Shown piece after piece: positions 19,883 to 57,342 of a stretch of 64,000 nt of DNA. Made by a program: the position numbers and the translations under genes. The notes under the pieces are model-generated. The model was not told where the DNA came from. It searched no databases and was given only the letters and a program-made list of their open reading frames with translations. This DNA comes from Alphaproteobacteria bacterium. Lineage in GTDB: Bacteria > Pseudomonadota > Alphaproteobacteria > UBA2966. Each line of letters starts with the position of its first letter. Within the stretch, counting starts at the first letter, position 1. The stretch spans positions 15,477 to 79,476 of the forward strand of contig JABIFY010000092.1 of the NCBI GenBank assembly GCA_018650465.1, read 5' to 3'.

Positions 19883-19907
19883 CTATCGAGAATTCCTATA
19901 GGGCACG

Positions 19908-21560: not shown

Positions 21561-21690
21561 GGCGTTCTTTGGGTAATCAAGGTGACAGGAAACATCAATT
21601 TTGATGTGGGGGGACCAGGATTGTACCCATGACAAGTCTGTTCAGCAATCACCTCTCACGCTGTTTCTCGCGCCGGACAAATAAAGCTGG

Positions 21691-26548: not shown

Positions 26549-26571
26549 TCTTCAATCCACTTTTGGGGACG

Positions 26572-30017: not shown

Positions 30018-31286
30018 TTGGATTCCACAATGAGCGTGCGACCAGAAGCCAGGGGTGCGGACAGGATGTCTGACGAAGACGAAGTCATTGACGACGAAGC
30101 TGTTGCGGCGGAGTGGGAAGCCTCGATGTTGGCGGAAGCCGGCGGGGACGAAGAGGAAGGCGTGGACGACGACGCTGTTGCCGCCGAATGGGAAGCCCAG
30201 ATGGCGGCCGAAGGCGGTGGCGATGAAGGTGGCGGTGATGACGATGCCATGGCCGAGGAGTGGGCCGCTATGGCCGACGGCGATGGTGATGGCGAAGATG
30301 AAGACGATGACATGGGGTCGACCCAGTCGACGCGTGTTCTTGACCAGGACGAAATCGACAGCCTGCTCGGCTTTGACAATGATGGTGACGGCGAGGAAGA
30401 AACTTCCGGCATCAAGGCGATCATCAACAGTGCGCTGGTTTCATACGAACGACTTCCCATGCTGGAGATCGTTTTTGACCGCCTGGTCCGGTTGATGTCG
30501 ACGTCCTTGCGTAACTTTACCTCAGATAATGTTGAAGTTTCGCTGGATAACATCACGTCAATTCGATTTGGCGATTACCTCAATTCCATTCCCTTGCCAG
30601 CTATTCTCAGTGTATTCCGAGCGGTTGAATGGGATAACTTCGGTTTGATCGTTGTTGATTCAGCCATGATCTATTCGATTGTGGATGTGCTGCTTGGCGG
30701 ACGTCGAGGCACTGCGGCTATGCGTGTTGAAGGTCGTCCATACACGACCATTGAACGAAACCTGGTTGAGCGCCTGGTGACCGTTGTGCTGGCCGATATG
30801 GGTGCGGCATTTGAGCCCCTTAGCCCTGTTAGCTTTAATTATGACCGCCTGGAAACCAATCCACGCTTTGCAACGGTTGCGCGACCTGCAAACGCGGCTA
30901 TTTTGATCAAGCTTCGGGTTGATATGGAAGACCGCGGCGGTCGTTTGGAAATAATGTTGCCATACGCCACGCTTGAGCCCATTCGTGAATTGCTGTTGCA
31001 GCAGTTCATGGGCGAGAAATTTGGCCGGGATACAATCTGGGAAAGCCACCTGGCAACAGAGCTCTGGTCGACCGAAATCTCTATTGAAGCTGTGCTTGAC
31101 GAACAAACAATGTCTTTGACAGATGTTATGAATTTTTCGGTTGGTGAAACCTTGATGTTGAACAGTGCGCCAGACGACCAGATTGAGTTGCGCTGCGGCG
31201 GCATTCCCCTGATGACCGGTAAGATGGGCCGGGTTGGGAATTCAATTTCAATTCGTGTGGACAATGGTATCGAATCGCGAAACTGA
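30018..31286 (+). CDS. fliM: Flagellar motor switch protein FliM with acidic tandem-repeat N-terminal extension
   Basis: Colinear with E. coli FliM (CheY-binding LDQDEIDSLL, RLPMLEIVFDRL, VDVLLGGRRG, IMLPYATLEPIRELL, C-terminal SpoA/FliN-like LRCGGIPLMTGKMG). It is preceded by about 100 aa of Asp/Glu-rich repeats (DDEAVAAEWEA x3). Confidence 0.85.
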   Translation: MDSTMSVRPEARGADRMSDEDEVIDDEAVAAEWEASMLAEAGGDEEEGVDDDAVAAEWEAQMAAEGGGDEGGGDDDAMAEEWAAMADGDGDGEDEDDDMGSTQSTRVLDQDEIDSLLGFDNDGDGEEETSGIKAIINSALVSYERLPMLEIVFDRLVRLMSTSLRNFTSDNVEVSLDNITSIRFGDYLNSIPLPAILSVFRAVEWDNFGLIVVDSAMIYSIVDVLLGGRRGTAAMRVEGRPYTTIERNLVERLVTVVLADMGAAFEPLSPVSFNYDRLETNPRFATVARPANAAILIKLRVDMEDRGGRLEIMLPYATLEPIRELLLQQFMGEKFGRDTIWESHLATELWSTEISIEAVLDEQTMSLTDVMNFSVGETLMLNSAPDDQIELRCGGIPLMTGKMGRVGNSISIRVDNGIESRN

Positions 31287-31665: not shown

Positions 31666-32460
31666 ATGACAACAACGAACGAAAGCATCGAAAAAGCGGC
31701 AGCCGCCATTCGCAAAGCCTACGATACTGGCGAGGCTTGTGCTCCCGTGCGAGAGTTTATTGGTGAGACGGATCTGGATGCAGCTTATGCAGTTCAGGAA
31801 ATTAACACCAAACACTGGCTCGACACCGGCCGTCGACCTGTCGGGCGGAAAATTGGTCTGACGTCAAAAGTTGTGCAGACCCAATTGGGTGTGGATCAGC
31901 CTGACTACGGCATGCTCTATGCGGACATGGATGTCGGCGATAGTGAAGAAGTGGCTCTTGGTCGGGTCATTCAGCCACGGGTAGAAGCTGAAATATTTTT
32001 TGTTCTGGGCGATGACCTCGATGAAGAACAACTCACGACTGCCGATGTGATGAACGCCATTGACTACGCCGTTGCCGGAATTGAAATCGTTGGATCTCGC
32101 GTCGCTGAATGGAATATCCGCATTACCGATACGATTGCTGATAATGCGTCCTCCGGCCTGTTTGTGCTGGGCCAGCAACCTAAACTGATTTCCGAATTTG
32201 ATTTGCGCTTGTGTGGCATGGTCATGGAACGCAAGGGTGAGCCGGTTTCCGTGGGGGCAGGTGCCGCATGTCTCGGCAGCCCGATCAACGCAACTTTGTG
32301 GCTGGCCAGAATGATGGCGAAGGTCGGTCGTCCCTTGATGCGTGGCGATATTGTTCTGTCTGGTGCCCTGGGCCCTATGGTGCCTGTCTCACCTGGAGAT
32401 GTCGTTGAAGCACGGATAAGCGGGCTGGGTTCAGTTCGTGCCGTCTTTGCGCCTGAATAA
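31666..32460 (+). CDS. 2-oxopent-4-enoate (2-keto-4-pentenoate) hydratase family (XylJ/DmpE/MhpD-like)
   Basis: Member of the MhpD/4-OD fold family. Assigned as the hydratase from its position immediately upstream of the acetaldehyde dehydrogenase and aldolase genes. Confidence 0.6.
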   Translation: MTTTNESIEKAAAAIRKAYDTGEACAPVREFIGETDLDAAYAVQEINTKHWLDTGRRPVGRKIGLTSKVVQTQLGVDQPDYGMLYADMDVGDSEEVALGRVIQPRVEAEIFFVLGDDLDEEQLTTADVMNAIDYAVAGIEIVGSRVAEWNIRITDTIADNASSGLFVLGQQPKLISEFDLRLCGMVMERKGEPVSVGAGAACLGSPINATLWLARMMAKVGRPLMRGDIVLSGALGPMVPVSPGDVVEARISGLGSVRAVFAPE

Positions 32461-32478
32461 ACTTTAGGGAAACAAATT

Positions 32479-33417
32479 ATGAAAGCCAAAGTGGCGATTA
32501 TTGGTTCCGGAAATATTGGAACCGATTTGATGATCAAGATACAACGCATGTCGCAGGTGCTGGAAATGGCCGCAATGGTTGGTATTGATGCAGATTCGGA
32601 TGGATTGAAACGAGCCACTGAAACGGGCGTCGCTACAACCTATAAAGGCCTTGAGGGACTGACGAAACTGGATTGTTATGCCGATATCAAAGTCGTGTTC
32701 GATGCAACATCTGCTGGTGCTCACAAGGCACATTCCGAGCGACTGATCGCGGATGGCAAGCAAGTCATTGACTTGACCCCGGCAGCAGTCGGTCCGTTTG
32801 TGGTACCGGTGGTCAATATGGACGAGCATCAAAATGAGCCAAATATGAACATGGTGACCTGCGGCGGCCAGGCGACAATCCCGATTGTTGCTGCTGTGCG
32901 ACGGGTTGTGGATCGTGTGGTTTATGGTGAAATTGTCGCTTCTATTTCTTCAAAATCGGCAGGACCAGGTACCCGAGCAAATATTGATGAGTTTACAGTG
33001 ACCACAGCCAAAGGCATTGAAACCGTGGGCGGTGCCGAAAGGGGCAAGGCGATTATTGTCATGAACCCGGCCGAGCCCCCGATGATCATGCGAGACACAG
33101 TGTACACCTTCAGCCAGGGTGGCAACGAAGACGCGATCCGGGATTCCATCCAGACTATGGTTGCTGAAGTTCAAAAATATGTTCCAGGGTATCGTTTGAA
33201 ACAGGAAGTTCAGTTTGAACATTTTGGCGATAATCAAAAACTCAACATTCCTGATGTCGGTCAGACGGCTGGACTGAAAACAACGGTCTTTCTGGAGGTT
33301 GAAGGCGCTGCACACTATTTACCCGCCTATGCCGGAAATCTTGACATCATGACGTCATCTGCTTTGGCAACCGCTGAACGCTGGGTTGAAACCAAGCTTG
33401 ATGAAAAGGCTGCCTGA
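32479..33417 (+). CDS. Acetaldehyde dehydrogenase (acetylating)
   Basis: [22 protein letters not shown]-terminus and overall DmpF/MhpF pattern. Confidence 0.85.
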
Positions 33418-33419
33418 TC

Positions 33420-34484
33420 ATGAATGCAACTCAAACGCCTGATAAAATATATATCCAGGATGTAACCCTGCGGGATGGGATGCATGCTGTGCGTCACCAG
33501 TTTGATCTGGACACAGTGCAGTCAATTTCGCGGGCGCTGGATGAAGCGCATGTGGATGCCATCGAGATTTGCCATGGCGACGGTTTAACGGGCACCTCCT
33601 TCAACTATGGTTTCGGCTCGCATTCTGACAATGACTGGATTGCCGCCGTTGCCGATGTCGTTGAACAGGCGAAGGTTACTGTTTTGCTGATCCCCGGGAT
33701 CGGCACGATTGAAAACCTGAAATCGGCCTATGACGCCGGTGCCCGCAGTGTCCGTATTGCCACGCACTGCACCGAAGCTGATGTTTCGAAACAACATATT
33801 GAAGCGGCCCGCGAAATGGGTATGGATACGGTCGGATTTTTGATGATGGCCCATATGATTCCTGCACAGGAACTTTTAGCCCAGGCATTGTTGATGGAAT
33901 CTTATGGTGCTGAATGTGTTTATGTAACCGACAGCGCCGGAGCCTTGTTGCAGGATGAAGTGGCGGAGCGAGTGCGAATTTTTCGGGATGCATTGAAGCC
34001 TGAAACGGGTATTGGTATCCATTGCCACCACAATCTTTCGCTTGGTGTCGCCAGCTCTGTGTCAGCTGTCCAGAATGGCGCGACAAGAGTTGATGCTTCG
34101 CTGGCCGGGAACGGGGCTGGTGCCGGCAATACACCGCTTGAAGTTCTGATTGCGGTATTCAATCGCATGGGTATCGAAAGTGGGTGTGATCTCTACAAAT
34201 TGATGGATGCGGCGGATGATCTTGTTCGTCCATTACAAGATCGTCCTGTGCGGGTTGACCGTGAAAGTTTGTCGCTGGGGTATGCTGGAGTCTATTCCAG
34301 CTTCTTGCGTCATGCCGAAAATGCTTCTGAAACCTATGGCATTGATACCCGTGAAATGCTTGTAGAGCTGGGGCGTCGTCGCATGGTCGGTGGCCAGGAA
34401 GACATGATTGTCGATGTGGCACTGGACCTGGTGAAGAGCAGGCAAGAAGCGGGCGCTGAAAATTCTGAAGAGGCAACAACATGA
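33420..34484 (+). CDS. 4-hydroxy-2-oxovalerate aldolase
   Basis: [12 protein letters not shown]...EICHGDGL DmpG/MhpE signature. Start is 3 nt after the previous stop. Confidence 0.85.
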
Positions 34485-35251
34485 GTAATCTTGGAAACCT
34501 GGCGGAAATTGTTGATGAAGCTGCGCGAACGGCAACTGCGGTACCGCAATTGACTATTGATACACCGGATTTGACGCCAGAAGACGGTTATGCCGTGCAG
34601 GCCCTCGCCATGGCGAGGCGCCTTTCACGTGGTGAAAAACGTGTTGGCGTGAAGATGGGCCTGACCAGTCGGGCCAAAATGATTCAGGTGAATGTGGAAG
34701 AGGTCATCTGGGGTCGCTTAACAGATGGCATGCGGGTCGAAGAAGGCGGTTTCACATCCATGTCGAAATATGTGCACCCCCGGGTGGAGCCTGAAATTGC
34801 TTTTTTGATGGGTGCGCCTCTGTCAGGGGATGTCAGTGCCGTTGAAGCTATGAACGCTGTGGAAGCTGTTGCGCCTGCCATGGAAATCATCGATAGCCGC
34901 TACAAGGATTTCAAATTTACCTGGGCAGATGTTGTTGCAGACAATTGTTCATCTTCCGGGTTTGTGATTGGGAATTGGTGTGCACCGGACAGCGATATCG
35001 CAAATGCGGGCATGGTCATGGAAATTGATGGGCAAGCCCGGCAAATCGGGTCCAGTGCTGCGATCCTGGGCAATCCGGTGCGGTCGCTGGTCGCGGCGGC
35101 CCGCATGGTGTCCCAATGGGGCGAACGTCTGGAAGCCGGGTACATTGTGATGGCAGGTGGGGCGACGGCCGCCGAACCTCTGGCTGCGGGCATGAGCATC
35201 CGGAATACAGTTCAGGGACTTGGCAGTGTGTCGTTTCAGGTAGAGGCCTGA
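34481..35251 (+). CDS. 4-oxalocrotonate decarboxylase family (XylI/DmpH-like)
   Basis: Second MhpD-fold paralogue, placed after the aldolase as in dmp/xyl operons. 4-nt overlap with the upstream gene. Confidence 0.55.
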
Positions 35252-35352: not shown

Positions 35353-36360
35353 ATGACCCATACTGAACCGATGCGTGACATAGCCCATCTGGGCCATATC
35401 GAATTGCTCTCACCCAAGCCTGACGAAAGTTTCCGCTATTTCACAGAGCTGCTGGGCATGGAATGTGTGCACCGCGAGGGACAGTCAGTCTATTTGCGGG
35501 GGTACGGAGACAATGCTTCAACAACCTTGAAGTTATCCGAATCTGACAAGCCAGGTGTCGGCCATGTGGGTTGGCGTGCCATCAGCCCCCAGGCATTGGA
35601 ACGCAGGGCGGCGGAGATTGAGAAAACCGGTCTTGGCCTTGGTTGGAGCAATGGGGACTTTGGCCATGGTCGCGCTTATCAGTTTTTTGATCCGGATGGA
35701 CACAAGCAGGAAATTTACTACGAGGAAGACCGCTACATTGCACCGGATGACAAGCGATCAACCCTGAAAAATCTACCCATGAAATACCCCGGTCGCGGCG
35801 TCGGTGTGCGGCGGACAGACCATCTGGCCTTGCTTTGTAAAGACGTCGGACCCAATCGTGAATTCGCCCAGGAAAATCTGGGTTTGCAACTGCGTGAACA
35901 AGTGCTTTTCGACGAGGGTAAATTTGAAGTCGGCTCGTGGATGAGTTCAACTGCCGTTCATCATGAAATGGCTTATGTTGCCGATGTCAAAGGCTTGAGC
36001 GGTCGATTGCATCATGTTTCGTTCTGGGTCGATAATCGAGAAGATGTGTTGCGGGCGGCCGATATCCTTATGGAAAATGGAATCGAAATCGAGGCAGGGC
36101 CATCGCGTCATAATAATTCCCAGGCCTTCTATCTCTATTCCTTTGAACCCGGTGGCAACCGCATCGAAATCTACTCAAGCGGGTTTTTGGTTTTTGCACC
36201 AGACTGGCAACCTGTCATCTGGAACGAACAAGAACGCGGTACAGGCGTTTATTGGGGCGCAGCCTTGCCGGACAGTTTTTTGAATTATGGAACACCAGAC
36301 CCGGAAACACATGGATTGCCGACCCCAGCCAGCGATATACCCGGCGTTGATCCGCTGTAA
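35353..36360 (+). CDS. Catechol 2,3-dioxygenase (type I extradiol dioxygenase, VOC superfamily)
   Basis: Colinear with XylE, including GRLHHVSFWVDNREDVLRAADIL...GPSRHNNSQAFYLYSFEPGGNRIEIY. Confidence 0.8.
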   Translation: MTHTEPMRDIAHLGHIELLSPKPDESFRYFTELLGMECVHREGQSVYLRGYGDNASTTLKLSESDKPGVGHVGWRAISPQALERRAAEIEKTGLGLGWSNGDFGHGRAYQFFDPDGHKQEIYYEEDRYIAPDDKRSTLKNLPMKYPGRGVGVRRTDHLALLCKDVGPNREFAQENLGLQLREQVLFDEGKFEVGSWMSSTAVHHEMAYVADVKGLSGRLHHVSFWVDNREDVLRAADILMENGIEIEAGPSRHNNSQAFYLYSFEPGGNRIEIYSSGFLVFAPDWQPVIWNEQERGTGVYWGAALPDSFLNYGTPDPETHGLPTPASDIPGVDPL

Positions 36361-36641
36361 ATACTGTCTGGACTATTCTGGAAGGTCAGCCAGGGCATCT
36401 CTGATTTCTTGTAGATTGCAGGGCTTGCGAATAATCGGAATGATGCCCCCAAATCTTCCTGGGTTTGTTCCATATTTTCATTACTATTCAAGGCCTTGAT
36501 GCCGCGCTGCGTTTTCAAAAGAGCCGCACAGACCAAACCAAATGATAATCTATTTTATCGACAAAGCATTGTTGCTCGCAGGATGAGTGCCGGATACTCT
36601 TGAATAGCTAATTCCCCAATAATTTCCTTCCGAAATACAAA

Positions 36642-37055
36642 ATGAAAATCCATATACATCAAATCTCCGTTGAGTGGGGCGATTGTGACCCTGCCGGCAT
36701 TGTATTTTATCCGAACTATTACCGCTGGATGGACGAAGCAACCTTTCATTTGTTTGACAGTGCAGGTTACGGTTGGACGGAAATTCGAGAAAAATTTGGC
36801 CCCCCCGGATTACCTTTGGTAGCCACACATGCGGAATATCGCATTCCAGGCTTTTTTGGTGACAAAATGAGTATCGAAGTCGGCGTTTCCGAATGGGGAA
36901 CCAAATCACTAACTGTGTCCCACCGCTTTATGAAAGACGGCAAGCTGGCAGTTGAAGGTTGGGAAAAGCGCATCTGGAGCGAGGGTGATCCGGGGGCCGG
37001 CAAAAAAATTGTAACGGCTCCCATCCCCGAAGAAGTGAAGGTCGCGCTGAGTTAA
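36642..37055 (+). CDS. 4HBT-fold acyl-CoA thioesterase (YbgC-like)
   Basis: Catalytic-region motif WGDCDPAGIVFYPNY (DxxGxV). Confidence 0.7.
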   Translation: MKIHIHQISVEWGDCDPAGIVFYPNYYRWMDEATFHLFDSAGYGWTEIREKFGPPGLPLVATHAEYRIPGFFGDKMSIEVGVSEWGTKSLTVSHRFMKDGKLAVEGWEKRIWSEGDPGAGKKIVTAPIPEEVKVALS

Positions 37056-37084
37056 ACCGGATCATTGAATCAAGGACAGGAATT

Positions 37085-37918
37085 ATGACCAGTGGAGTAG
37101 TCGCAAGCGCAATCGTGCCCCATACACCTCGCATGGGCGTTGAGGAATCCGCACCGGATTTTGTCCGTCCACTTATCCAGGGACAACGCGATCTTGGTGA
37201 AGAACTACGCGCGCTCAAACCAGATGTAATTGTCTTGCAGTCCAGCCACTGGGTCAGCACATTTAATTGGTACGTGACTGTTAACAAAATCCATGAAGGT
37301 GTTTGCATCGCCGACGAAGCACCAGACCTTATTCCCGGCTCCCCTTACAAATACGATGGTGATCCAGAATTCGGACAGGCCGTTGTCGATGCGCTCAAAG
37401 GGGCAGGCCTGGCTGTTGGTTTGATGGATTCACCCCATTTCAAATGGGATTATGCCTCATATGTGCCGCTGCATTATCTCGACCCGGAAGCAACGATCCC
37501 GGTCGTCTTGCTGCCATCCGTCATATGTTCTGATCTGAATGAAAACATCAGGGTTGGTGGACTTGTACATGAGGCCGCAGTCAAGGAGGGCAAAAAAGTT
37601 GTTTACCTGGGCAGTTGCGCCCTCGCTCACAAAGTTGTCCGTGGGCCCCATTTGTGGCCATCACAGGAGCATATGGATACAGATAAAAAGCTGATTTCCA
37701 TGTTCTGTGACGGCGAAATAGATGCGTTGATTGATTGGCTGCCTGCTTATGCTCACGATGTTGTCACCGAAATGGGGGGGCGACCCCTTGCCGGGATGTT
37801 GGGGGCAACTGCTGCCATGGCCGGGGATACTGGTCGTGTCCGTGGCAAACAATGGGGTCCCTACGGACAAAGTTCCGGATCTGGCAATGCCAGCATTTGT
37901 GTTTTGCCAGCAGACTAA
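37085..37918 (+). CDS. Class III extradiol ring-cleavage dioxygenase, LigB family (AmnB/HpaD-like)
   Basis: AIVPHTPR N-terminus, PDVIVLQSSHW, WDYASYVPLHYL and LGSCALAHK match LigB-family landmarks. Confidence 0.65.
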   Translation: MTSGVVASAIVPHTPRMGVEESAPDFVRPLIQGQRDLGEELRALKPDVIVLQSSHWVSTFNWYVTVNKIHEGVCIADEAPDLIPGSPYKYDGDPEFGQAVVDALKGAGLAVGLMDSPHFKWDYASYVPLHYLDPEATIPVVLLPSVICSDLNENIRVGGLVHEAAVKEGKKVVYLGSCALAHKVVRGPHLWPSQEHMDTDKKLISMFCDGEIDALIDWLPAYAHDVVTEMGGRPLAGMLGATAAMAGDTGRVRGKQWGPYGQSSGSGNASICVLPAD

Positions 37919-37948
37919 TTCGTAAATAATACAGAACGGAATTTAACC

Positions 37949-40084
37949 ATGGGTGCTGAACGGTCTTTTGCCAAGGAAGTACAACAACTTCGCGCGGGCG
38001 AGGGGGAGGTATTTTTTGGCGAAGGCATCCTCGCTGTTACCAAAGGTTTGCTGCAGTCAGGTGTGGCCTATGTTGGCGGCTATCAAGGAGCACCTGTTTC
38101 ACATTTGATTGATGTGCTGGTAGATGCCGAAGACTTGATGACTGAACTGGGTATGCATGTAGAAACCTGCGCCAGTGAAGCGGCGGCAGCCGCCTTGCTG
38201 GGCGCATCAATTAATTATCCTTTACGCGGTGCCGTGACCTGGAAGTCCATCGTAGGTACCAACGTTGCGGCTGATGGCTTGTCCAATCTGTGCTCACCGG
38301 GGGTCATGGGCGGGGCATTGATTGTTGTTGGCGAGGATTACGGTGAAGGCGCCAGCATCATCCAGGAGCGTACCCTCGCCATGGCCATGAAGTCGACGAT
38401 CTGGCTTTTTGATCCCAGACCGGATTTGCAGAATATCGTCGACATGGTGGAGCAATCATTCGAGCTATCCGAAGCCTCCAATACGCCTGTGATGATGCAG
38501 CTACGTATCAGGTCCTGCCATGTCCAGGGAGAATTCATAGCCAAAAATAATCGCGCACCGAAAGTTGGCACCAAAAACCGTTTCACCGATCCGGCGGTGT
38601 TTGACTATGACCGTCTGGCGCATCCACCCGTGACCTTCAGTCATGAAAAGCTGAAAGTCTCTGCCCGCTTGCCGGCCGCACAGCGCTACATCGTTGAACA
38701 TGGCCTGAATGAACTGATCGAAGGTGAGCAAAAATCGGTCGGCATCATCGTCCAGGGAGGGATTTACAATATCCTCATGCGACGCTTGCAGGTCATGGGG
38801 TTAGCCGATGCTTTCGGAAACAGCAAGATACCCGTGTTGGTGTTGAATGTGACCCATCCGCTGGTGCCGGATCAGATAACGGATTTCTGTGCCGGTAAAA
38901 ATGCTGTTCTGATGGTCGAGGAAGGCAATCCCGAATTTATGGAACATCAGGTTAGCTCCCTGCTGCGCAAGGCTGACCTTTCAACCAAACTACACGGTAA
39001 GGACATCCTGCCGGCGGCTGGCGAATATACAGCTGATGTTTTGCAGCAGGGGCTGGTTTCATTTTTCGAGCTGGCCATGCCGACGGGCATTCACAAGTCC
39101 CATATACAGGACCTGGTCGCTCGTAGCGATGATGCGCGCATGGGCGGTAAGGTAGCCCTTGGTCAGCCATCACCGCCCAGACCTCCCCAGTTCTGCACGG
39201 GTTGCCCGGAACGCCCGGTTTTTTCGGCGATCAAGATCATCGAGCAGGAAACAGGGAAGGTGCATATCGCGGCTGATATCGGCTGTCACGCCTTTGCGAC
39301 CTTTGAACCATTTTCCATGGGGAATTCCATTCTTGGTTACGGCATGTCGCTGGCCAGTGCCGCCGCAGTTGCCCCTTTTCAGGAACGGCGCTCTATATCC
39401 ATTATGGGGGATGGTGGCTTTTGGCATAACGGCCTGACCAGCGGTGTCGTCAGCACCATGTTGAACGCTGGTGATTCTATTCTGATCATCATGCAGAACG
39501 GCTATACGTCTGCGACCGGCCAGCAATTTATCCCCAACAGTGCCGCCGGCCGTCACAAGGAGCCGCCGGGTATGGACATCGCCAAGACATTGAAAGGGTT
39601 GGGTGTTCCGTGGATGAAGACGATCCGGACATATTCTGTATCTGTAATGGTCGATACTTTGCGGGAAGCTTTGACGACGGACGTACCGGGCCTGAAGGTC
39701 ATTATCGCCGATGGTGAATGTCAGCTTGCGCGGCAACGACGACTGCGGGGTGAAAATGCCGGAAAACTGGAACGGGGCGAACGCGTTGTCACGCCGCGAT
39801 TTGGCATCGATGATGAAATTTGCTCAGGCGATCATTCCTGCATTCGACTTTCAGGTTGCCCCAGTCTTGGTATCAAGGACAATCCAAATCCGCTCAAATC
39901 TGATCCGGTCGCGACGATTGAGCCCACATGCGTTGGCTGTGGAATGTGCGGTGAAGTCTCCCACGCAGCAACGCTTTGCCCTTCCTTTTACCAAATCGAA
40001 AAAGTGACCAATCCAGGAGTTTTCGAGAATATGCTTGCAACCGTTCGACGCGGCGCAATCGGATTTTTGGGAGGCGGAGCGTGA
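37949..40084 (+). CDS. iorA: Indolepyruvate/2-oxoacid:ferredoxin oxidoreductase alpha subunit (ThDP-binding)
   Basis: ThDP motif GDGGFWHNG. Ferredoxin-type Cys clusters CTGCPERP and CVGCGMCGEV. IorA-type domain order. Confidence 0.75.
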   Translation: MGAERSFAKEVQQLRAGEGEVFFGEGILAVTKGLLQSGVAYVGGYQGAPVSHLIDVLVDAEDLMTELGMHVETCASEAAAAALLGASINYPLRGAVTWKSIVGTNVAADGLSNLCSPGVMGGALIVVGEDYGEGASIIQERTLAMAMKSTIWLFDPRPDLQNIVDMVEQSFELSEASNTPVMMQLRIRSCHVQGEFIAKNNRAPKVGTKNRFTDPAVFDYDRLAHPPVTFSHEKLKVSARLPAAQRYIVEHGLNELIEGEQKSVGIIVQGGIYNILMRRLQVMGLADAFGNSKIPVLVLNVTHPLVPDQITDFCAGKNAVLMVEEGNPEFMEHQVSSLLRKADLSTKLHGKDILPAAGEYTADVLQQGLVSFFELAMPTGIHKSHIQDLVARSDDARMGGKVALGQPSPPRPPQFCTGCPERPVFSAIKIIEQETGKVHIAADIGCHAFATFEPFSMGNSILGYGMSLASAAAVAPFQERRSISIMGDGGFWHNGLTSGVVSTMLNAGDSILIIMQNGYTSATGQQFIPNSAAGRHKEPPGMDIAKTLKGLGVPWMKTIRTYSVSVMVDTLREALTTDVPGLKVIIADGECQLARQRRLRGENAGKLERGERVVTPRFGIDDEICSGDHSCIRLSGCPSLGIKDNPNPLKSDPVATIEPTCVGCGMCGEVSHAATLCPSFYQIEKVTNPGVFENMLATVRRGAIGFLGGGA

Positions 40085-41565
40085 TGGAACTAAGTACTGT
40101 TCGCCCGATTACCCTTTTGATTGCAGCCATGGGCGGCGAAGGTGGTGGTGTGTTAACCAGCTGGATCGTCAACGCCGCGAGAAGCTGCGGTTTGCCGGTT
40201 CAAGCAACCTCCATCCCCGGAGTGGCCCAGCGCACAGGTGCAACCACATATTATATAGAAATTTGGCCAGAGGTCTTGTCTGTGGGGGCCACAAAACCGG
40301 TGCTGGCATTGGCCCCGGCCATTGGTGAAATAGATATTCTGGCGGCAACAGAATATGTTGAAACGGGTCGCATGATCGAAGCAGGCTATGTCACGCCTGA
40401 TCGCACGACCTTGATTGCGTCAAATCATCGTGTTTTCACTACGCATGAAAAACTGGCGATGGGGGATGGTCGTGCAGATGTCGCGCCGATAAAAAAAGCC
40501 ATTAAAGAGCGCGCGAAAAGAGCCGTTGTCGTCGATATGCGCGAAGCCTCAAGCAAAAGTGGCGCGGTGATCAATGCCGTTATGCTGGGGGCCATATGCG
40601 GTGCCGGTGTCTTGCCAATTACTAGAAATGTTTTTGAAGATGGCATTCAGGCTGAAGGCAAGGCTGTTGAAGCAAACCTGCGGGGCTTTAAAGCCGGACT
40701 TGACGCAGCCACAACCCGCGCAAATTCCGATGAAGTTACTGAGGCTTCGGTCGCCGTCCATTCTGCGCTGTCGCATGCGATCAGCAATGATTTTCCTCTG
40801 GCGGCGCATCAAACCCTGATACATGCGACTACTCGACTGATTGATTATCAGGATATCGCTTATGCGACAGCCTATCTCGAAAAACTGAAGCCTTTCGCGC
40901 AAGGTGATCAGGAACTTTTAGTCAGTGTCGGCCGAAATCTCGCCGTCCGGATGGCCTATGAGGATGTTTACCGTGTTGCCCAGGTGAAAGCCCACCCAGA
41001 CCGCCTGATGCGAATCAGGAAGGAAGCTCGCGCTCAAACCGGTGAGCCAATCAAGGTCAGGGAATTCTTCAAACCGCGACTATCTGAAATCAGTGATGCC
41101 TTGCCCGCAGGGCTGGGGCGTTGGCTTCAATCCCTGGCAGAGCGCAATCCTGGACTTGCGCAAAAATCGTGGCCCATGTTGATCGAAACAACCTCTGTTT
41201 CGGGATATCTGCGAATTCGGGTTTTGTCAGGATTGAGACGCATCCGTCGGTCGACCCTTCGTTTCAAAACAGAAGAACAAGCGATCACGAACTGGTTGGC
41301 GTACGTTGGCAAAGCCATGGAGACAAGTCACAAGGCTGCCATGCAAGTCTCGGAATGTTCCAGTTTGATCAAAGGGTATGGCGATACCCACAAGCGCGGC
41401 GTTAGAAGCTATAGTGCCATCATGAATCAACTCGTTGTGCCTGCCGTTACGGGCGACAAGTTTACTGACCAATTGGCCGCAGATATTTATGCCGCCAGAA
41501 CGGCAGCTTTGGCTGATCCGGAAGGCAAAAACCTGATGGCAGTTCTGGAAGGTATGGCGGCATGA
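40084..41565 (+). CDS. iorB: Indolepyruvate/2-oxoacid:ferredoxin oxidoreductase beta subunit
   Basis: ITLLIAAMGGEGGGVL...ATSIPGVAQRTGATTYYIE matches the IorB / PFOR-gamma fold. Its ATG overlaps the iorA stop (TGATG). Confidence 0.75.
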   Translation: MELSTVRPITLLIAAMGGEGGGVLTSWIVNAARSCGLPVQATSIPGVAQRTGATTYYIEIWPEVLSVGATKPVLALAPAIGEIDILAATEYVETGRMIEAGYVTPDRTTLIASNHRVFTTHEKLAMGDGRADVAPIKKAIKERAKRAVVVDMREASSKSGAVINAVMLGAICGAGVLPITRNVFEDGIQAEGKAVEANLRGFKAGLDAATTRANSDEVTEASVAVHSALSHAISNDFPLAAHQTLIHATTRLIDYQDIAYATAYLEKLKPFAQGDQELLVSVGRNLAVRMAYEDVYRVAQVKAHPDRLMRIRKEARAQTGEPIKVREFFKPRLSEISDALPAGLGRWLQSLAERNPGLAQKSWPMLIETTSVSGYLRIRVLSGLRRIRRSTLRFKTEEQAITNWLAYVGKAMETSHKAAMQVSECSSLIKGYGDTHKRGVRSYSAIMNQLVVPAVTGDKFTDQLAADIYAARTAALADPEGKNLMAVLEGMAA

Positions 41566-42968
41566 CGGGCACGACAACGAACCTCGACACCGGTGAAATG
41601 ATGGCTCTTTATGCCAGCGGCGACTTGTCTCCAGTGACAGTTGCTGAGGATCTGTTTGTGAGTATCGAAAAACAGGAACCGGTTCTGAATGCTTTCCAGG
41701 TGCTGGACCAGGAAGCCGCCCTGTCACAGGCACGTGCCAGTGAAGCACGATGGCACCGCGGTAAACCGATGGGCGATCTTGATGGTGTGCCGGTCAGTAT
41801 CAAGGAACTGATCCTGACAAAAGGCTGGCCAACCCGGCAAGGGTCGCTGACGACGGACGCTGATCAGGCCTGGGATGTTGATGCGCCTGCCGTTGCCCGG
41901 TTACGTGAAGCAGGGGCTGTATTGTTTGGAAAAACTACTTCTCCTGAATTTGGCTGGAAGGGAATAACAGACAGTCCTTTAAGTGGCGTCACCCGAAACC
42001 CGTGGAACCCGGATTATTCCCCTGGAGGTTCCAGTGGCGGGGCAGGAGCTGCCGTCGCTGCCGGTCTCGGGCCCCTGGCCCTGGGGACAGATGGCGGCGG
42101 TTCGATACGAATACCTGCCAGTTATTGCGGTTTGTTCGGCATTAAACCGACATTCGGCCGGGTGCCTTCCTGGCCTCAGGACAGTGCTTATTCGACATTG
42201 GTCAGCAGTGGCCCTCTGTCGCGTAACGTTGCTGACGCGGCCCGCATGTTGAATGTCATTACACGACCGGATTATCGCGACTGGTATGCCTTGCCGCCGG
42301 AAAAAGTGGACTACCTCGATCAACTGTCACGTCGCGTAAAGGGTTTACGTATTGGATACAGTCCATCTCTGGGCGGGGCCAAAGTGACGCCAGAAGTTGC
42401 CGGGATTGTTGCAAAAGCCATTGATACCTTCGCTGATCTGGGTGCTCACGTTGAGATCGTCGACGACATCATTGAGCCCTTGCGCCCCAGGTTTGAAGAC
42501 TATTGGGTTGCCGGATTTGCAGCTATTTATCGCAATGTACCGGTTGGCATGCGGGATCACCTGGACCCTGGTTTCAGGAAACTTGCCGAACGAGGTTTAT
42601 CAGTTGATCTGGAAGGGTATTACAAGGGACTTGCGGCGAGGGTAACGCTGGCAGAAGAATTCAGCCGTTTTTACGAAAATCATGATTTGTTAATGACCCC
42701 GACCATGCCATCCACTGCGCCCAAAGCCGATGTTATCTACCATTCCGAAACATTCGATCGCTGGAATGATGCGGTTCCATATACCGTCCCGTTCAACCTG
42801 ACAGGGTTGCCCGCAGCTTCCGTTCCGGCTGGACTTGATTCAAGGCAACTCCCTGTCGGCCTGCAAATTGTTGGCCCCAGGTTTGCCGAGTTTCGCATTT
42901 TGGCGGCAGCCGCCGCTTTTGAGCAGGTCAGACCATTTCCGACACTGCTGAAACCAGGCAACGACTGA
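41562..42968 (+). CDS. Amidase-signature family amidase
   Basis: GGSSGGAGAAVAAG signature and Ser-cisSer-Lys triad context. 4-nt overlap with iorB. Confidence 0.8.
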   Translation: MTGTTTNLDTGEMMALYASGDLSPVTVAEDLFVSIEKQEPVLNAFQVLDQEAALSQARASEARWHRGKPMGDLDGVPVSIKELILTKGWPTRQGSLTTDADQAWDVDAPAVARLREAGAVLFGKTTSPEFGWKGITDSPLSGVTRNPWNPDYSPGGSSGGAGAAVAAGLGPLALGTDGGGSIRIPASYCGLFGIKPTFGRVPSWPQDSAYSTLVSSGPLSRNVADAARMLNVITRPDYRDWYALPPEKVDYLDQLSRRVKGLRIGYSPSLGGAKVTPEVAGIVAKAIDTFADLGAHVEIVDDIIEPLRPRFEDYWVAGFAAIYRNVPVGMRDHLDPGFRKLAERGLSVDLEGYYKGLAARVTLAEEFSRFYENHDLLMTPTMPSTAPKADVIYHSETFDRWNDAVPYTVPFNLTGLPAASVPAGLDSRQLPVGLQIVGPRFAEFRILAAAAAFEQVRPFPTLLKPGND

Positions 42969-43181: not shown

Positions 43182-45971
43182 TTGGAATTTGGTGCAAGAA
43201 GGGAACCGTTCGTGCTGCAAGCCAAATCAAGAGTTCTTTATGTGGAGGACTACCAATACCTTGGGATTTTGTTCCAGAAGGTCATGGCCCGTCTTGGCCT
43301 CGATATAGATTTGGCAGCAACGGGACGTGAAGGCCTTGAGAAATTTAACGACAATCCCTACGACGTTGTTGTCCTGGACTACCACTTGCCGGATATGACC
43401 GGAATTGATATTGCCCGCGAGCTATTGGAGAACAATCCTGATCAGGCCGTTGTTTTGGTAACGGGTCGCGGTGACGAGCAAACCGCTGTAAATGCTCTCA
43501 GTTTGGGTATCGCTGAATATCTGGTCAAAGACAACCAAAATATCTTTCTTGAAAAGCTGCCTGAAGTTGTCAAGAAATTATTGCTGGAAGGCGAAAAACG
43601 GCGGGAAAAAGAAGAACAAAGTGCTGCCTTGCGAGAAAGTGAAGCACGTTACCGTGCATTGTTCGAAAGTTCACTTCAAGGCATCGTCGTTCACGCGAAT
43701 TACCAACCCCTGTTTGCCAATCAAGCATTCGCAAGCATGCACGGATATGCTGATGCAGTAGAGATATGTACTCTCGAAAGCATCCTGTCCCTGTTGCCGG
43801 ACGATGAACGAGAAGCATATAAAAAGGCAACCACCTCTGTGGCCTTGGGGAGCGAGCAAACCTGGGATCATGATCATCGGGGTGTGCGCAAGGACGGCGG
43901 AACTGTTTGGTTGGATATTCGCGGGCAACAGATCCAGTGGGAAGGCAATTCTGCCATGCAGATTGTCGCAGTTGATACGACGGCGCGAAGGGAAGCGCAG
44001 TTCGAACTGGAGCAACGTGAAGCCCGCTTGCGAGAAAGCGAAGCCATGTTGCAAGCCATTCAGGAAAACTTGCCTGCGGCTCTCAATATCAAGGAAGAAG
44101 ACGGGCGCTTCACCTATGTAAACAAACAATTCAGATTGCGTTACAAGGAAAAAACAGAAAATGCGATTGGCCTCACTGCTTTCGATCTGTTTGATTCTGA
44201 AACTGCAAAGATAATTCAGGCGCATGATGCAAAGCTTCTGCGGGATGGCAACGTATCAAGTGAAGAAGTAGAAATGACCTGGCCAGACGGCAGGCCGCTT
44301 TTCGTCGAGAATATCAAGTTCCCTGTAATCTTCGGTGGCAAAAGATTTATTGGAACGATCAGTCTGGATATCACCAGGCAAAAAGAAGCATTTTTGGACC
44401 TGCAGCGAAGTGAAAAACTACTTCAAGAGTCGGAAAACTATCTTCACGAACTTATCCAGACTGCCAATGCACCGATCATTTCACTGGACAGTGAATTCCA
44501 TATTACGGACTGGAACAAGGCAGCTGAAAACATCACTGGTTATGAAAAAAGTGAGGTCCTGCAGAGCAATTTTGTTGAGCGTCTTGTCACCGAAGATATG
44601 CAACAACAAGTCAAGGAAATGCTGGTTGACAACCTTGGGGACTCCCACACCAATAATGCAAAGATTACACTGCGCACAAAATTTGGTGAGTATGCAACTG
44701 TCTTGTTCAGTACCTCTGCGCGTCGCGGTGAAGATAACAAAATTGCAGGCTTGGTCTGTATTGGACAAGATGTCACCTTGCTGATGCAAGCTCAGGACCA
44801 ACTATCGCAATCCCAAAAAATGGAAGCAGTGGGCCAGCTGACTGGCGGCATTGCACATGATTTTAATAATCTGCTGCAGATTATTTCCGGTGCCACAACC
44901 ATGCTGGAAGAACTGCATGGTAAAGAAAGCACACTAAGTAAATGGATTCGCCAAATTGAAGAAGCTGTGGACCGCGGTGGAAGTTTGACTTCTCAGCTTC
45001 TGGCTTTCTCGCGACAGCAAAACCTTAGCCCGACTGTTGTGCGGCCCGGCAAAGTGATTTCTGAAATAGAGGCATTGCTACAACGAACACTTGGTGAAGA
45101 TATTCATTGGAATATTCTTGTGTCAGGCGTTACACCTCTGGTCAATGTTGACGCGCATGCCTTGCAAAATGCCATCATCAATCTCTGCGTAAACTCCAGG
45201 GCCGCGATGCCCGCTGGTGGGGAGTTGTCAATCAAGGTTGCCGAGACGGAAATTGCGGAAGATGAAGTGGTCGATGATGATATTGTTGCCGCTGGATCGT
45301 TTGTTGAGATTTCAGTTTCTGACAATGGTGAGGGTATGACGCCGGAGATTCTTGAAAATGCGATCAATCCATTTTTCTCAACCAAGCCTGTCGGTGAAGG
45401 AACCGGACTTGGTTTGAGCATGGTCTACGGCTTTAGCCGCCAATCAGGTGGCTTGACCAGGATTGACAGTAAAGTTGGCGTCGGCACGCGTGTCAGCATA
45501 TTGTTGCCGGTTACGAAATCGGCGGTCGATGACGACGCGACACCTGATTTGATCGCCGGGAACGATCCGGAACAATCGTCACAGCAACCTGAGGTCGTCG
45601 TAATTTCCGGACCAATTCTTGTTGTTGAAGACAATAAAGAGGTCAGGGATACAACCTGCGCCATGCTTGAGGTGTTTGGCTACGAATTTGTTGAAGCTGA
45701 AAATGCCAGCAATGCCTTGGAGATTCTTTCTCAGCGGCCAGACATAAATACGGTTTTCAGCGATGTTGTGATGCCAGGCGGCATGAGTGGATTTGACCTT
45801 GCCAAAAAGCTGGGAGAATCGGGTCGAAAGTACAATGTGTTGCTGACGTCAGGCTATCCCGACAAATTGAGCCACGGAAATTCGATTGTCGACCATTCCA
45901 TTCAAATGATTGCCAAGCCCTTCTCGATAGCAGACCTTGAAACGGCGCTGGGCAATTTAGTCAGGAGCTAA
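43182..45971 (+). CDS. Hybrid sensor histidine kinase: REC-PAS(x2-3)-HisKA-HATPase-REC
   Basis: N-terminal receiver (VVVLDYHLPDMTG). H-box [21 protein letters not shown]. HATPase G-boxes. C-terminal receiver (ILVVEDN...DVVMPGGMSG). TTG start at 43182, so the true start may be the GTG at 43212. Confidence 0.8.
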   Translation: MEFGARREPFVLQAKSRVLYVEDYQYLGILFQKVMARLGLDIDLAATGREGLEKFNDNPYDVVVLDYHLPDMTGIDIARELLENNPDQAVVLVTGRGDEQTAVNALSLGIAEYLVKDNQNIFLEKLPEVVKKLLLEGEKRREKEEQSAALRESEARYRALFESSLQGIVVHANYQPLFANQAFASMHGYADAVEICTLESILSLLPDDEREAYKKATTSVALGSEQTWDHDHRGVRKDGGTVWLDIRGQQIQWEGNSAMQIVAVDTTARREAQFELEQREARLRESEAMLQAIQENLPAALNIKEEDGRFTYVNKQFRLRYKEKTENAIGLTAFDLFDSETAKIIQAHDAKLLRDGNVSSEEVEMTWPDGRPLFVENIKFPVIFGGKRFIGTISLDITRQKEAFLDLQRSEKLLQESENYLHELIQTANAPIISLDSEFHITDWNKAAENITGYEKSEVLQSNFVERLVTEDMQQQVKEMLVDNLGDSHTNNAKITLRTKFGEYATVLFSTSARRGEDNKIAGLVCIGQDVTLLMQAQDQLSQSQKMEAVGQLTGGIAHDFNNLLQIISGATTMLEELHGKESTLSKWIRQIEEAVDRGGSLTSQLLAFSRQQNLSPTVVRPGKVISEIEALLQRTLGEDIHWNILVSGVTPLVNVDAHALQNAIINLCVNSRAAMPAGGELSIKVAETEIAEDEVVDDDIVAAGSFVEISVSDNGEGMTPEILENAINPFFSTKPVGEGTGLGLSMVYGFSRQSGGLTRIDSKVGVGTRVSILLPVTKSAVDDDATPDLIAGNDPEQSSQQPEVVVISGPILVVEDNKEVRDTTCAMLEVFGYEFVEAENASNALEILSQRPDINTVFSDVVMPGGMSGFDLAKKLGESGRKYNVLLTSGYPDKLSHGNSIVDHSIQMIAKPFSIADLETALGNLVRS

Positions 45972-46006: not shown

Positions 46007-46139
46007 TCTTGATCTGTTGAAAAACCCAGATATTCCATACATTTATTGTTGATGTCGGTTTATTTGCTGGTCCCGTTGTCAGCAGGTGGTTTTTCGTGGG
46101 AAAACACAGGTTCTGAATATAGAAGAGGATGCAGGTAGT

Positions 46140-47567
46140 ATGCTGATCAACGGAAATTGGACCGAAGCCCCTGAAGGCGCTTTGTTTGACGTTATTAACC
46201 CGGCAAATGGAGACGTGGTGGGGCAAGTGCCGGATGGTAATGCAGCATCTGCCCGATCCGCCATTGAAGCGGCTGCGGCTGCCTTTGGTTCCTGGTCAAA
46301 AACTACTGCACATGCCAGATCTGCAATCCTTTACAAGGCCTGGCAACTGATGCTGGAGCGCAAGGAGGACCTGGCCCGGACGATGACGCTGGAGCAGGGA
46401 AAACCGCTGCGTGCGGCGACGACCGAAGTTCAGTATGCAGCTGATTTTCTGCTTTGGTTCGCCGAAGAAGCAAAGCGAAGCTATGGGGAAACCATCCCCT
46501 CGGCCCGGGCCGATCAACGCTTTATTGTATCTCATTATCCGGTTGGTGTGGTTGCCGCGATTACGCCGTGGAATTACCCCGTTTCCATGATTACCCGAAA
46601 AGTGGGCCCGGCGTTGGCTGCGGGCTGTACCGTTGTATTAAAACCGGCTGAGGCCACACCGCTGTGTGCAATCAAGGTTTTCGAAATATTGACAGAAGCT
46701 GGCCTGCCTGACGGTGTCATCAACCTTGTAACAACAAGCAATCCAGCACCGGTGGGCGAAGAATTTGTTTCCAACCCCCTGGTGCGGAAACTCACCTTCA
46801 CCGGCTCGACCGCTGTCGGCAAGATGCTGGCTGGCAAAGCTGCCGGCAACATGAAGCGTGTGTCCTGTGAATTGGGCGGCCATGCGCCGTTTCTGGTATT
46901 TGATGACGCTGACCCGGTACACGCGGCCAAGGGCGTGCAGTTGGTGAAATTTCTGAACACCGGCCAGGCTTGCATCAGTCCTAACCGTATATTTGTGCAC
47001 CAGTCCAAAGTCGATGCCTTTGTCGATACCCTGCAATCGCGGGTCGCGAACATGAAGGCGGGCTCAGGCATGGAAGATGGTGTGACCATCGGACCACTTG
47101 TTGATGAGCGCGCCGTTGCCAAGGTTTCTGCCCAGGTCGATGATGCCGTCGCCAAGGGAGCTGAAGTCGTTTGCGGCGGTAATCGGTTGCTTTCCAACGG
47201 ACTGGAAAAAGGATTCTTTTATGCACCAACGGTGCTTAGGGGTGTGACGCCGGACATGTTGATCTACCGCGAGGAAACTTTTGGACCGGTCGCCCCGATC
47301 ATCACCTTTGACGATGATCAGGAAGCGCTGAAAATGGCAAATGATACAAATTATGGCCTCGCGGCTTATGTTTACACACGCGATATCTCACGCGCCATGC
47401 GCATGTTTGAAGCGCTGGAATTTGGCATTATCGGGGTGAACGATATTAACCCCAGCGCCGCATCGGCACCGTTTGGCGGCATGAAGGACAGTGGTCTTGG
47501 CCGCGAGGGCAGTCGTGAAGGTATGGCTGAATATCTTGAAACCAAACTGGGTGGCTTCGCGATTTAG
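46140..47567 (+). CDS. NAD(P)-dependent aldehyde dehydrogenase (succinate-semialdehyde-dehydrogenase-like)
   Basis: MLINGNWTEAP...VINPANGDV N-terminus. ELGGHAP and catalytic Cys (QACISPNR) are present. Confidence 0.8.
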   Translation: MLINGNWTEAPEGALFDVINPANGDVVGQVPDGNAASARSAIEAAAAAFGSWSKTTAHARSAILYKAWQLMLERKEDLARTMTLEQGKPLRAATTEVQYAADFLLWFAEEAKRSYGETIPSARADQRFIVSHYPVGVVAAITPWNYPVSMITRKVGPALAAGCTVVLKPAEATPLCAIKVFEILTEAGLPDGVINLVTTSNPAPVGEEFVSNPLVRKLTFTGSTAVGKMLAGKAAGNMKRVSCELGGHAPFLVFDDADPVHAAKGVQLVKFLNTGQACISPNRIFVHQSKVDAFVDTLQSRVANMKAGSGMEDGVTIGPLVDERAVAKVSAQVDDAVAKGAEVVCGGNRLLSNGLEKGFFYAPTVLRGVTPDMLIYREETFGPVAPIITFDDDQEALKMANDTNYGLAAYVYTRDISRAMRMFEALEFGIIGVNDINPSAASAPFGGMKDSGLGREGSREGMAEYLETKLGGFAI

Positions 47568-53581: not shown

Positions 53582-53583
53582 TG

Positions 53584-57328: not shown

Positions 57329-57342
57329 GCTGGACCCCGAAT

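Follow-up and report, generated by a model that had tools for sequence, protein, structure and literature searches.

Five co-directional genes and their products

The 64-kb stretch of DNA analyzed here (the window) originates from an uncultured marine alphaproteobacterium and harbors, downstream of a block of meta-cleavage genes, five co-directional genes for a 4HBT-type acyl-CoA thioesterase (TE), a class III extradiol dioxygenase (referred to as LigB), both subunits of a 2-oxoacid:ferredoxin oxidoreductase (IorA and IorB, together IorAB), and an amidase (Table 1). An earlier note on this DNA had described these five genes at positions 36642-42968, and our analysis confirmed the open reading frames (ORFs), their families, and, by motif inspection of LigB, amidase, IorA, and TE, the integrity of the catalytic motifs. 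Starting from the gene for catechol 2,3-dioxygenase (C23O), the gaps amounted to 281 nt in front of TE and to 29, 30, -1, and -4 nt along TE-LigB-IorA-IorB-amidase, within 1 nt of the 280 bp and the 30, 31, -1, and -4 nt previously given. None of the components reached the score of a curated equivalog model of a characterized enzyme, each belonging to a known superfamily. We found no description of this gene combination in the literature, so that the statement that it matches no described pathway was borne out.

A BLASTn comparison with two related loci (L008 and L089) revealed that the TE match extends upstream by 90 nt (about 76% identity), with no conservation in the rest of the 281-nt gap; no remnant of a GntR or kinase gene was found there. 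Based on the spacing and this conserved leader, we infer that the five genes are co-transcribed. Consensus scans resulted in 8 promoter-like sites (12 expected) and 18 terminator-like sites (15 expected), i.e., nothing above chance, and an Rfam scan of the region from 29 to 49 kb gave no match and no riboswitch or leader RNA. Around LigB, the amidase, and the meta block, a repeat search detected neither insertion sequence ends nor target duplications nor long repeats, and the GC and GC3 contents of the five genes did not differ from those of their neighbors, giving no compositional sign of recent transfer.

Table 1. Annotated features of the locus, in order of position in the window
Feature	Position	Strand	Basis
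3' remnant of 2-hydroxymuconic semialdehyde (HMS) dehydrogenase, last ~86 codons	31298-31651	+	TIGR03216 positions 396-481/481
2-Oxopent-4-enoate hydratase	31666-32460	+	Pfam, NCBIfam
Acetylating acetaldehyde dehydrogenase	32479-33417	+	Pfam, NCBIfam
4-Hydroxy-2-oxovalerate aldolase	33420-34484	+	Pfam, NCBIfam
4-Oxalocrotonate-decarboxylase-like protein	34481-35251	+	Pfam, NCBIfam
C23O, vicinal-oxygen-chelate type	35353-36360	+	PF00903 twice; TIGR03211 315.7 bits (cutoff 320)
Conserved 90-nt leader/promoter-proximal region before TE gene	36552-36641	+	blastn
TE, 4HBT-type hotdog acyl-CoA thioesterase, 137 aa	36642-37055	+	PF13279, PF03061
LigB, single-subunit class III extradiol dioxygenase, 277 aa	37085-37918	+	PF02900
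IorA, TPP-/Fe-S-binding subunit of indolepyruvate-type 2-oxoacid:ferredoxin oxidoreductase, 711 aa	37949-40084	+	PF02775, TIGR03336
IorB, POR + DUF6537 subunit, 493 aa from ATG overlapping IorA stop	40084-41565	+	PF01558, PF20169, NF006179
Amidase-signature hydrolase, 468 aa, 4-nt overlap with IorB	41562-42968	+	PF01425, NF004815
Hybrid sensor kinase (receiver, PAS, HisKA, HATPase)	43182-45971	+	Pfam
Succinate-semialdehyde-dehydrogenase-like aldehyde dehydrogenase	46086-47567	+	TIGR01780 603 bits (cutoff 646)

TE was identified as a member of the 4HBT hotdog family (68.4 bits to PF13279; 33.5 bits to PF03061) and carries the motif GDCDPAGIVFYPNY near its N-terminus, in which the position of the catalytic Asp was assigned by eye. 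Its best solved relatives were the 4-hydroxybenzoyl-CoA thioesterases 5wh9 (3e-27) and 1bvq (1e-17), and its score to the YbgC/FadM model TIGR00051 stayed at 39 bits (cutoff 68.7).

LigB was clearly assigned to PF02900 (72.1 bits; cutoff 26.3). The Fe(II) ligands H13, H55, and E229 as well as the catalytic H182 were invariant in 32 family members and aligned with the same residues of both HpaD sequences (E. coli and Phaeobacter) and of a plasmid-encoded enzyme of Priestia megaterium. The description of LigB as HpaD/AmnB-like in the earlier note holds for the fold, since its AlphaFold model (pLDDT 96.2) superposed equally well on HpaD and on the aminophenol dioxygenases AmnB/AmnA (8iq8, 7txy, 8ihg, and 3vsi; Foldseek TM 0.88-0.90), but not for the HpaD family itself, as LigB reached only 86.5 bits with TIGR02298 (cutoff 315.95) and shared 23-25% identity with both HpaD sequences. 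The best PDB sequence match was nevertheless HpaD-type 8iq8 (3e-18, TM 0.88). Among the other enzymes proposed for comparison, AmnB was detected by phmmer (E = 1e-14; 20-26% identity), and no significant similarity was found to E. coli YgiD (blastp E = 0.002 over 101 residues; 22 bits to the YgiD/DODA model NF007914, cutoff 233) or E. coli MhpB (blastp E of at least 0.3, no NCBIfam match, Foldseek TM 0.63). No hpaE/F/G/H/I-type genes were identified beside LigB; its neighbors are of Dmp/Xyl type, with HpaH and HpaE models scoring below the Dmp, Mhp, and SSADH models. The idea that homoprotocatechuate feeds the neighboring meta enzymes is therefore not favored, because these belong to the catechol (Dmp/Xyl) and not the Hpa type and the HMS dehydrogenase is truncated. 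We down-weighted it also for the distance of LigB from HpaD and the lack of hpa-type lower genes.

Of the annotated relatives retrieved, the nearest was the Priestia enzyme mentioned above (37% identity, E = 7e-56), which is accompanied by genes for an IclR regulator, an amidohydrolase, an aldehyde dehydrogenase, an FAA-family enzyme, and a 4-oxalocrotonate tautomerase (4-OT), a cluster that appears to resemble the published protocatechuate 2,3-cleavage (pra) cluster. LigB has 546 homologues (E ≤ 1e-10), with 49-100% identity among the best 120; none bears an experimental name. The subfamily occurs in Alpha-, Beta-, Gamma-, and Deltaproteobacteria, Binataceae, Acidobacteria, and SAR324. Analysis of its gene neighborhoods, for which 80 genome loci were kept, revealed a directly adjacent CMD-family gene (PF02627) in 16 loci (including L021, L024, L062, L071, and L087), an aryl-CoA-ligase-like gene in 16, aldehyde dehydrogenases in about 11, and meta-pathway hydratase or decarboxylase genes in about 8, as well as TRAP transporters and, at one locus, a VanA-like O-demethylase together with an IclR regulator. 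In Burkholderiales, FAA-hydrolase, CoA ligase, CMD, and LigB genes form an operon adjoining a TRAP transporter, and in Telmatospirillum, the LigB homologue ends a complete HMSD-hydratase-ADH-aldolase-4OD-4OT operon. Altogether, this neighbor pattern points to a putative ring-cleavage enzyme for a carboxylated dihydroxy-aromatic compound. CMD may act as a non-homologous replacement for a PraH-type decarboxylase. The LigB+CMD pairs were also considered as an analogue of PraA/PraH, a comparison that was dropped, as PraH, the decarboxylase of the pra cluster, is of amidohydrolase type (ACMSD-like) and not a CMD protein (PMC6362003). A MetE-like gene (PF01717 Meth_synt_2, about 370 aa) was observed divergent beside one LigB homologue (L005, 8776-9879) and adjoining one TE homologue (L175, 8683-9801).

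The two oxidoreductase genes overlap by 1 nt. IorA displayed the TPP motif GDGG487 (GDGG...N) and a C-terminal Cys cluster, and was 58-75% identical to homologues in about 60 metagenome loci and 92% identical to the protein of a sister-lineage contig (L089). While IorB clearly belonged to the bacterial IorB family (NF006179, 536 bits; cutoff 348), neither subunit came near the archaeal-type equivalog models (IorA to TIGR03336 266.7 bits, cutoff 650.9; IorB to TIGR03334 43 bits, cutoff 205.8), and PDB sequence searches retrieved no relative of IorA (E ≤ 1e-5) or IorB (E ≤ 1e-3). For an IOR-type enzyme of Phaeobacter, an aerobic marine alphaproteobacterium, conversion of phenylpyruvate to phenylacetyl-CoA was determined experimentally (PMC5577590).

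The amidase matched PF01425 (336.9 bits) and NF004815 (594 bits; cutoff 506), with the Ser-cisSer-Lys signature represented by GGSSGG155 and GGGS (residues c. 176-179), and its best solved relative was the aryl acylamidase 4yj6 (1e-65). The earlier note had also named indole-3-pyruvate and indole-3-acetamide as possible substrates, in which case IorAB and TE would form indole-3-acetate via indole-3-acetyl-CoA and the amidase would release it from the amide. This would agree with the match of IorA and IorB to indolepyruvate oxidoreductase families and with a distant similarity of the amidase to indoleacetamide hydrolase (IaaH model NF005688, 212.6 bits). However, the latter score lies far under the cutoff of 532, IorAB does not reach the archaeal IOR equivalogs, and the families owe their names to a single archaeal enzyme that accepts a broad range of arylpyruvates. 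Since the extradiol dioxygenase would be left without a substrate and a role, we down-weighted this explanation and regard it as the least probable of those considered.

The affinities of amidase and LigB would likewise fit a route from aminophenols or anilides, with the amidase as an aryl acylamidase or a 2-aminomuconate deaminase of CnbZ type and LigB as a 2-aminophenol-type dioxygenase, whose product would enter the lower pathway via 4-oxalocrotonate. CnbZ of Comamonas CNB-1 is reportedly an amidase-signature 2-aminomuconate deaminase (a literature search on it gave nothing usable). In line with this route, the amidase has its best solved relative in an aryl acylamidase, the LigB model is no farther from the AmnB/AmnA structures than from HpaD, and the tautomerase gene missing from the window is not needed in the amn pathway. 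On the other hand, the known aminophenol dioxygenases consist of two subunits, and LigB is the single LigB-fold ORF of the cluster, with no second one as an AmnBA-type pair needs. Moreover, the amidase follows IorAB and not LigB or the meta genes across the relatives, and IorAB and TE would have no role, which makes this route very improbable.

Modular composition among related loci

The gene order was repeated in independent metagenome assemblies with protein identities of 73-92% and is thus neither due to chance nor an assembly artefact. All close relatives of the locus are metagenomic. IorB was identical to a protein of an 'Alphaproteobacteria bacterium' metagenome-assembled genome (MAG) at NCBI, and the nearest genome in a species-level collection was MAG SI054_bin61 (Alphaproteobacteria; LigB 87% identical).

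Comparison of the relatives led to four arrangements. The first, (a), was found in the window and a 142-kb JGI contig (P0123), the two sequences with all five genes together, and consists of meta genes, C23O, TE-LigB-IorA-IorB-amidase, and a hybrid kinase; P0123 carries an additional kinase on the opposite strand in front of TE. In the second, (b), represented by L001, L007, L008, and L089, meta genes and C23O are followed by a kinase and a GntR gene, both on the minus strand, and by TE-LigB-IorA-IorB-aldehyde dehydrogenase, with neither the amidase nor the downstream kinase. The third, (c), displayed by contigs P0127 and P0128 (IorB 70-71% identical), harbors no LigB and no meta-cleavage genes: here, FliM is followed directly by TE-IorA-IorB-amidase-kinase, and the upstream order of hemerythrin, 432-aa gene, DUF2249, Sel1, SDR, and FliM is that of the window's flank at 26-31 kb. 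The fourth, (d), was identified in L174 (IorB 58%, TE 65% identical) and reads TE-IorA-IorB-DUF2390-unknown-Amidohydro_3-PAS kinase. A kinase similar to that of the window follows the amidase in P0123, P0127, and P0128 and the amidohydrolase in L174. The hybrid sensor kinase is likely the regulator of the locus. The aldehyde dehydrogenase downstream of it has a 93% identical counterpart directly after IorB in L001, L008, and L089.

Across the relatives compared, all five genes were not conserved as one unit. The amidase follows IorB in three relatives and is absent in L001, L008, and L089, LigB and the meta block were found together in the window, P0123, and L008, and loci with both LigB and IorAB numbered 3 among some 80 for LigB and 1 among some 80 for IorB. 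What the relatives conserve is thus a TE-IorAB core, in most cases joined by an amide-type hydrolase and a sensor kinase, and the five genes do not form one indivisible unit. As for the earlier description of an operon appended to meta-cleavage genes, adjacency and spacing stand, but the unit is not obligatory, and, with TE-IorAB-amidase occurring in relatives without LigB or meta genes, the order of events is better reversed: a TE-IorAB-amidase locus appears to have come first and to have received LigB at the TE/IorA junction and the 5.3-kb meta block at the junction of FliM and TE. The locus may thus be read as a mosaic of two or three separate modules stitched together, in which a common pathway is plausible but no fixed new operon is present. 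The five-gene set is lineage-specific and modular, and mosaic catabolic islands are common.

Such a mosaic raises the question of an incidental juxtaposition, in which LigB would be a second ring-cleavage enzyme of the meta block for a catechol- or protocatechuate-like compound, TE-IorAB-amidase-kinase a pre-existing module for 2-oxoacids or amino acids and amides, and the tight spacing a result of insertion into an existing operon and not of a shared pathway. Arrangement (c), the co-occurrence of LigB with the meta block, the Telmatospirillum operon and other genomes with a LigB homologue within a complete meta operon but no IorAB, and the rarity of loci with both LigB and IorAB all argue for it. 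However, LigB sits precisely between TE and IorA and not beside the meta block, and TE-family genes accompany LigB at ten further loci and IorAB elsewhere, a pattern that would be difficult to account for if TE did not serve both. We consider an incidental juxtaposition unlikely, though well within reason; if the modules were independent, the locus would be an ordinary catabolic gene island.

The thioesterase is the element that both parts share, its homologues adjoining LigB without IorAB in some genomes and IorAB without LigB in others. In the set of 80 LigB loci, 10 carried a TE homologue on the upstream side of LigB, and in about half of them it was the immediate neighbor. Two loci (L063 and L069, c. 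9476-10825) displayed an isolated TE-LigB pair flanked by housekeeping genes (ABC-F ATPase, ferrochelatase, and DnaK), which suggests that this pair may function on its own. Regarding IorAB, a TE homologue was found 1-4 kb upstream of IorA at 13 more distant loci, i.e., about half of the 27 with sufficient flank, and soil-type loci showed the order enoyl-CoA hydratase (ECH), CoA ligase, SDR, TE, TRAP transporter, IorA, IorB, and TPP enzyme. In a neighbor-joining tree (no bootstrap), the window TE clustered first with the IorAB-linked TE of L174 (65% identity) and next with a LigB-linked TE (L016; 55%). Another TE, 67% identical, is located among genes of aromatic amino-acid catabolism, namely those for an aromatic ammonia-lyase, an aminotransferase, an amino-acid dehydrogenase, a D-amino-acid oxidase, and a phenol hydroxylase. 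In our view, these pairings are the strongest argument that TE, LigB, and IorAB could connect through an acyl-CoA intermediate, and they support a chain from 2-oxoacid via acyl-CoA and free aromatic acid to ring cleavage.

Proposed pathway and comparison with described systems

Based on these findings, we tentatively propose, with chances that we put just short of even, that IorAB forms an acyl-CoA, TE releases the acid, and LigB cleaves it in LigB-bearing lineages. As the 2-oxoacid substrate of IorAB, an aromatic compound (arylpyruvate or arylglyoxylate) is most likely; its oxidative decarboxylation would yield the acyl-CoA and reduced ferredoxin, and TE would hydrolyze the thioester to the free aromatic acid and regenerate CoA. 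The amidase would provide this carbon skeleton from an amide precursor, and the hybrid kinase would sense the substrate. In LigB-bearing lineages, the acid, already dihydroxylated or hydroxylated elsewhere, would then be ring-cleaved, its product passing through the lower meta pathway to pyruvate and acetyl-CoA. We infer both the order of these reactions and the aromatic nature of the substrate. A sequence from arylglyoxylate via aroyl-CoA to a protocatechuate-like acid would fit the affinities of TE and LigB at least as well as one from arylpyruvate to arylacetate, and such aroyl products would suit the locus no less than the homoprotocatechuate or indole compounds named in the earlier note. 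The general logic put forward in the earlier note, i.e., an oxidoreductase forming an acyl-CoA, a thioesterase releasing the acid, and a class III extradiol dioxygenase acting next, is thereby supported, with the Phaeobacter enzyme as precedent (PMC5577590).

Several points weigh against this pathway. Neither a ring hydroxylase among the five genes nor a PraH-like, CMD, or 4-OT match in the 64-kb window was detected. Because such decarboxylase and tautomerase genes are lacking and the HMS dehydrogenase is truncated, a carboxylated ring-fission product would therefore have no obvious route into the lower pathway. Energy would be wasted if a thioester were made and then hydrolyzed, and a role of TE in CoA rescue or proofreading would be an alternative. 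In addition, neither LigB nor the amidase is tied to the core in its occurrence, so that their linkage may not mean one pathway; the IorAB family is very large (7944 members scored at E ≤ 1e-20); and the downstream succinate-semialdehyde-dehydrogenase-like enzyme would also fit aliphatic 2-oxoacids.

Among described ring-cleavage systems, LigB is reminiscent of PraA (BAH79099), the protocatechuate 2,3-dioxygenase from the pra pathway of Paenibacillus sp. JJ-1b, a single-subunit enzyme of the LigB superfamily of about 280 aa that is linked to Dmp/Xyl-type lower genes, this likeness resting on the Priestia enzyme with its pra-like cluster as a proxy and not on the PraA sequence itself. In contrast to pra, the window lacks a PraH-type decarboxylase, a tautomerase, and an intact HMS dehydrogenase, and many LigB relatives have a CMD-family partner instead of PraH. 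To our knowledge, the pra system does not include partners such as a thioesterase, a CoA ligase, or IorAB. For the 5-carboxy-HMS that PraA forms from protocatechuate, absorption at about 350 nm is reported (PMC13254512). With HpaD/HpcB, LigB shares the fold, the metal ligands, and a similar length, but differs in its low identity and TIGR02298 score and in the absence of hpaEFGHI-type downstream genes from the window.

Release of a hydroxylated acid by a 4HBT-fold enzyme for ring cleavage, as proposed for TE, has its counterpart in FcbABC, the 4-chlorobenzoate system with its 4-hydroxybenzoyl-CoA thioesterase, and the gentisyl-CoA thioesterase BH1999 adjoins a gentisate dioxygenase. While the thioester in these systems comes from an ATP-dependent ligase and the dioxygenase used for comparison is of cupin type, the window harbors a LigB-type dioxygenase, and the thioester would come from a ferredoxin-reducing oxidoreductase. 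For the oxidoreductase step, the phenylglyoxylate:acceptor oxidoreductase PadEFGHI, which belongs to the anaerobic degradation of phenylalanine and phenylacetate, converts an aryl 2-oxoacid to an aroyl-CoA by oxidative decarboxylation in a CoA-dependent reaction. Likened by reaction type, such an aroyl-CoA formation would suit a TE similar to 4-hydroxybenzoyl-CoA thioesterases and a LigB close to PraA-like enzymes. PadEFGHI, however, comprises five subunits compared to IorA plus IorB in the window, and it works anaerobically in front of benzoyl-CoA reduction, whereas hydrolysis and oxygenolytic cleavage are proposed here. In roseobacters (Phaeobacter), Ior1/IorAB, like the window enzyme a member of the alphaproteobacterial IOR family, produces arylacetyl-CoA in an oxygen-respiring marine bacterium, the likeness being one of family and role and not of a sequence comparison (PMC5577590, PMC6122490). 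Its product enters Paa epoxidation as a CoA ester, whereas the window has no paa genes nearby, a thioesterase in the operon, and a proposed extradiol cleavage.

Taken together, the locus may be regarded as a peripheral funnel into extradiol cleavage, assembled from known superfamilies throughout. If the IorAB-TE-LigB chain held true, 2-oxoacids derived from aromatic amino acids or lignin would reach extradiol cleavage by a new peripheral route without an ATP-consuming ligase or a decarboxylase/aldehyde step, and a first function would be assigned to two large groups without annotation, the PraA-like LigB subfamily and the DUF6537 bacterial IorAB family. As to its architecture, the locus appears to show operon assembly in progress, with one TE gene common to two modules and a meta block pasted in with its first gene cut, which is relevant for the annotation of aromatic catabolism in low-oxygen marine MAGs. 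A wider reading, which we judge improbable, is that a widespread but uncharacterized LigB subfamily coupled to a dedicated 4HBT thioesterase constitutes a thioester-gated extradiol cleavage module, in which aromatic acids would pass through processing as CoA thioesters and be set free no earlier than the dioxygenase step. For this alphaproteobacterium of oxygen-minimum-zone type, this would mean that the ferredoxin-reducing IorAB takes the place of an ATP-dependent ligase and that aromatic 2-oxoacids or amides are led to oxygenolytic cleavage while low-potential electrons are conserved. Such a combination of anaerobic-style activation with aerobic ring fission would be without described precedent.

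Meta-cleavage block and flanking regions

The lower meta-pathway proteins (31666-35251) are of Dmp/Xyl type and were 90-96% identical to those of a sister MAG (L008), with DNA homology to this MAG beginning at about position 31406. The remnant of the HMS dehydrogenase gene, for which tblastn with a full-length homologue matched residues 440-525 only, begins 11 nt after the FliM stop codon and marks the left edge of the inserted meta block. In the sister MAG, at least the last c. 290 codons of this gene are present, at the edge of the fetched locus. Probably, either the dehydrogenative branch and the block's own promoter were lost in the window, or the junction represents a recombination or assembly breakpoint.

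The preceding gene (30018-31286) encodes an orphan FliM-like protein with FliM and FliN-C domains and, in the longest ORF, an N-terminal extension of about 130 residues; it has no flagellar neighbors, and its position beside the TE-IorAB locus is kept in P0127 and P0128. Further upstream, genes for a hemerythrin, a 432-aa protein, and a DUF2249 protein (26033-28397, minus strand) form a trio that is likewise kept upstream of the locus in relatives and may serve in sensing or handling of oxygen or nitric oxide, in keeping with a low-oxygen habitat. A beta-oxidation-like cluster (11984-21635, minus strand) comprises genes for a TPP enzyme (NF006052), acyl-CoA ligase, thioesterase II, enoyl-CoA hydratase, thiolase, SDR, and two acyl-CoA dehydrogenases, and its families overlap with the IorAB neighbors in the soil metagenome loci (ECH, CoA ligase, SDR, and TPP enzyme). 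On the other side, a catabolic island (49953-62995) harbors a molybdenum hydroxylase of the xanthine dehydrogenase family (FAD subunit and fused 2Fe-2S/Mo subunit), two uncharacterized ORFs, two PF06684 'AA_synth' paralogues, a VanA-like Rieske oxygenase, MarR, Zn-ADH, an amidohydrolase, and a tungsten-type aldehyde:ferredoxin oxidoreductase, which suggests catabolism of aromatic or N-heteroaromatic compounds via oxygen-sensitive enzymes.

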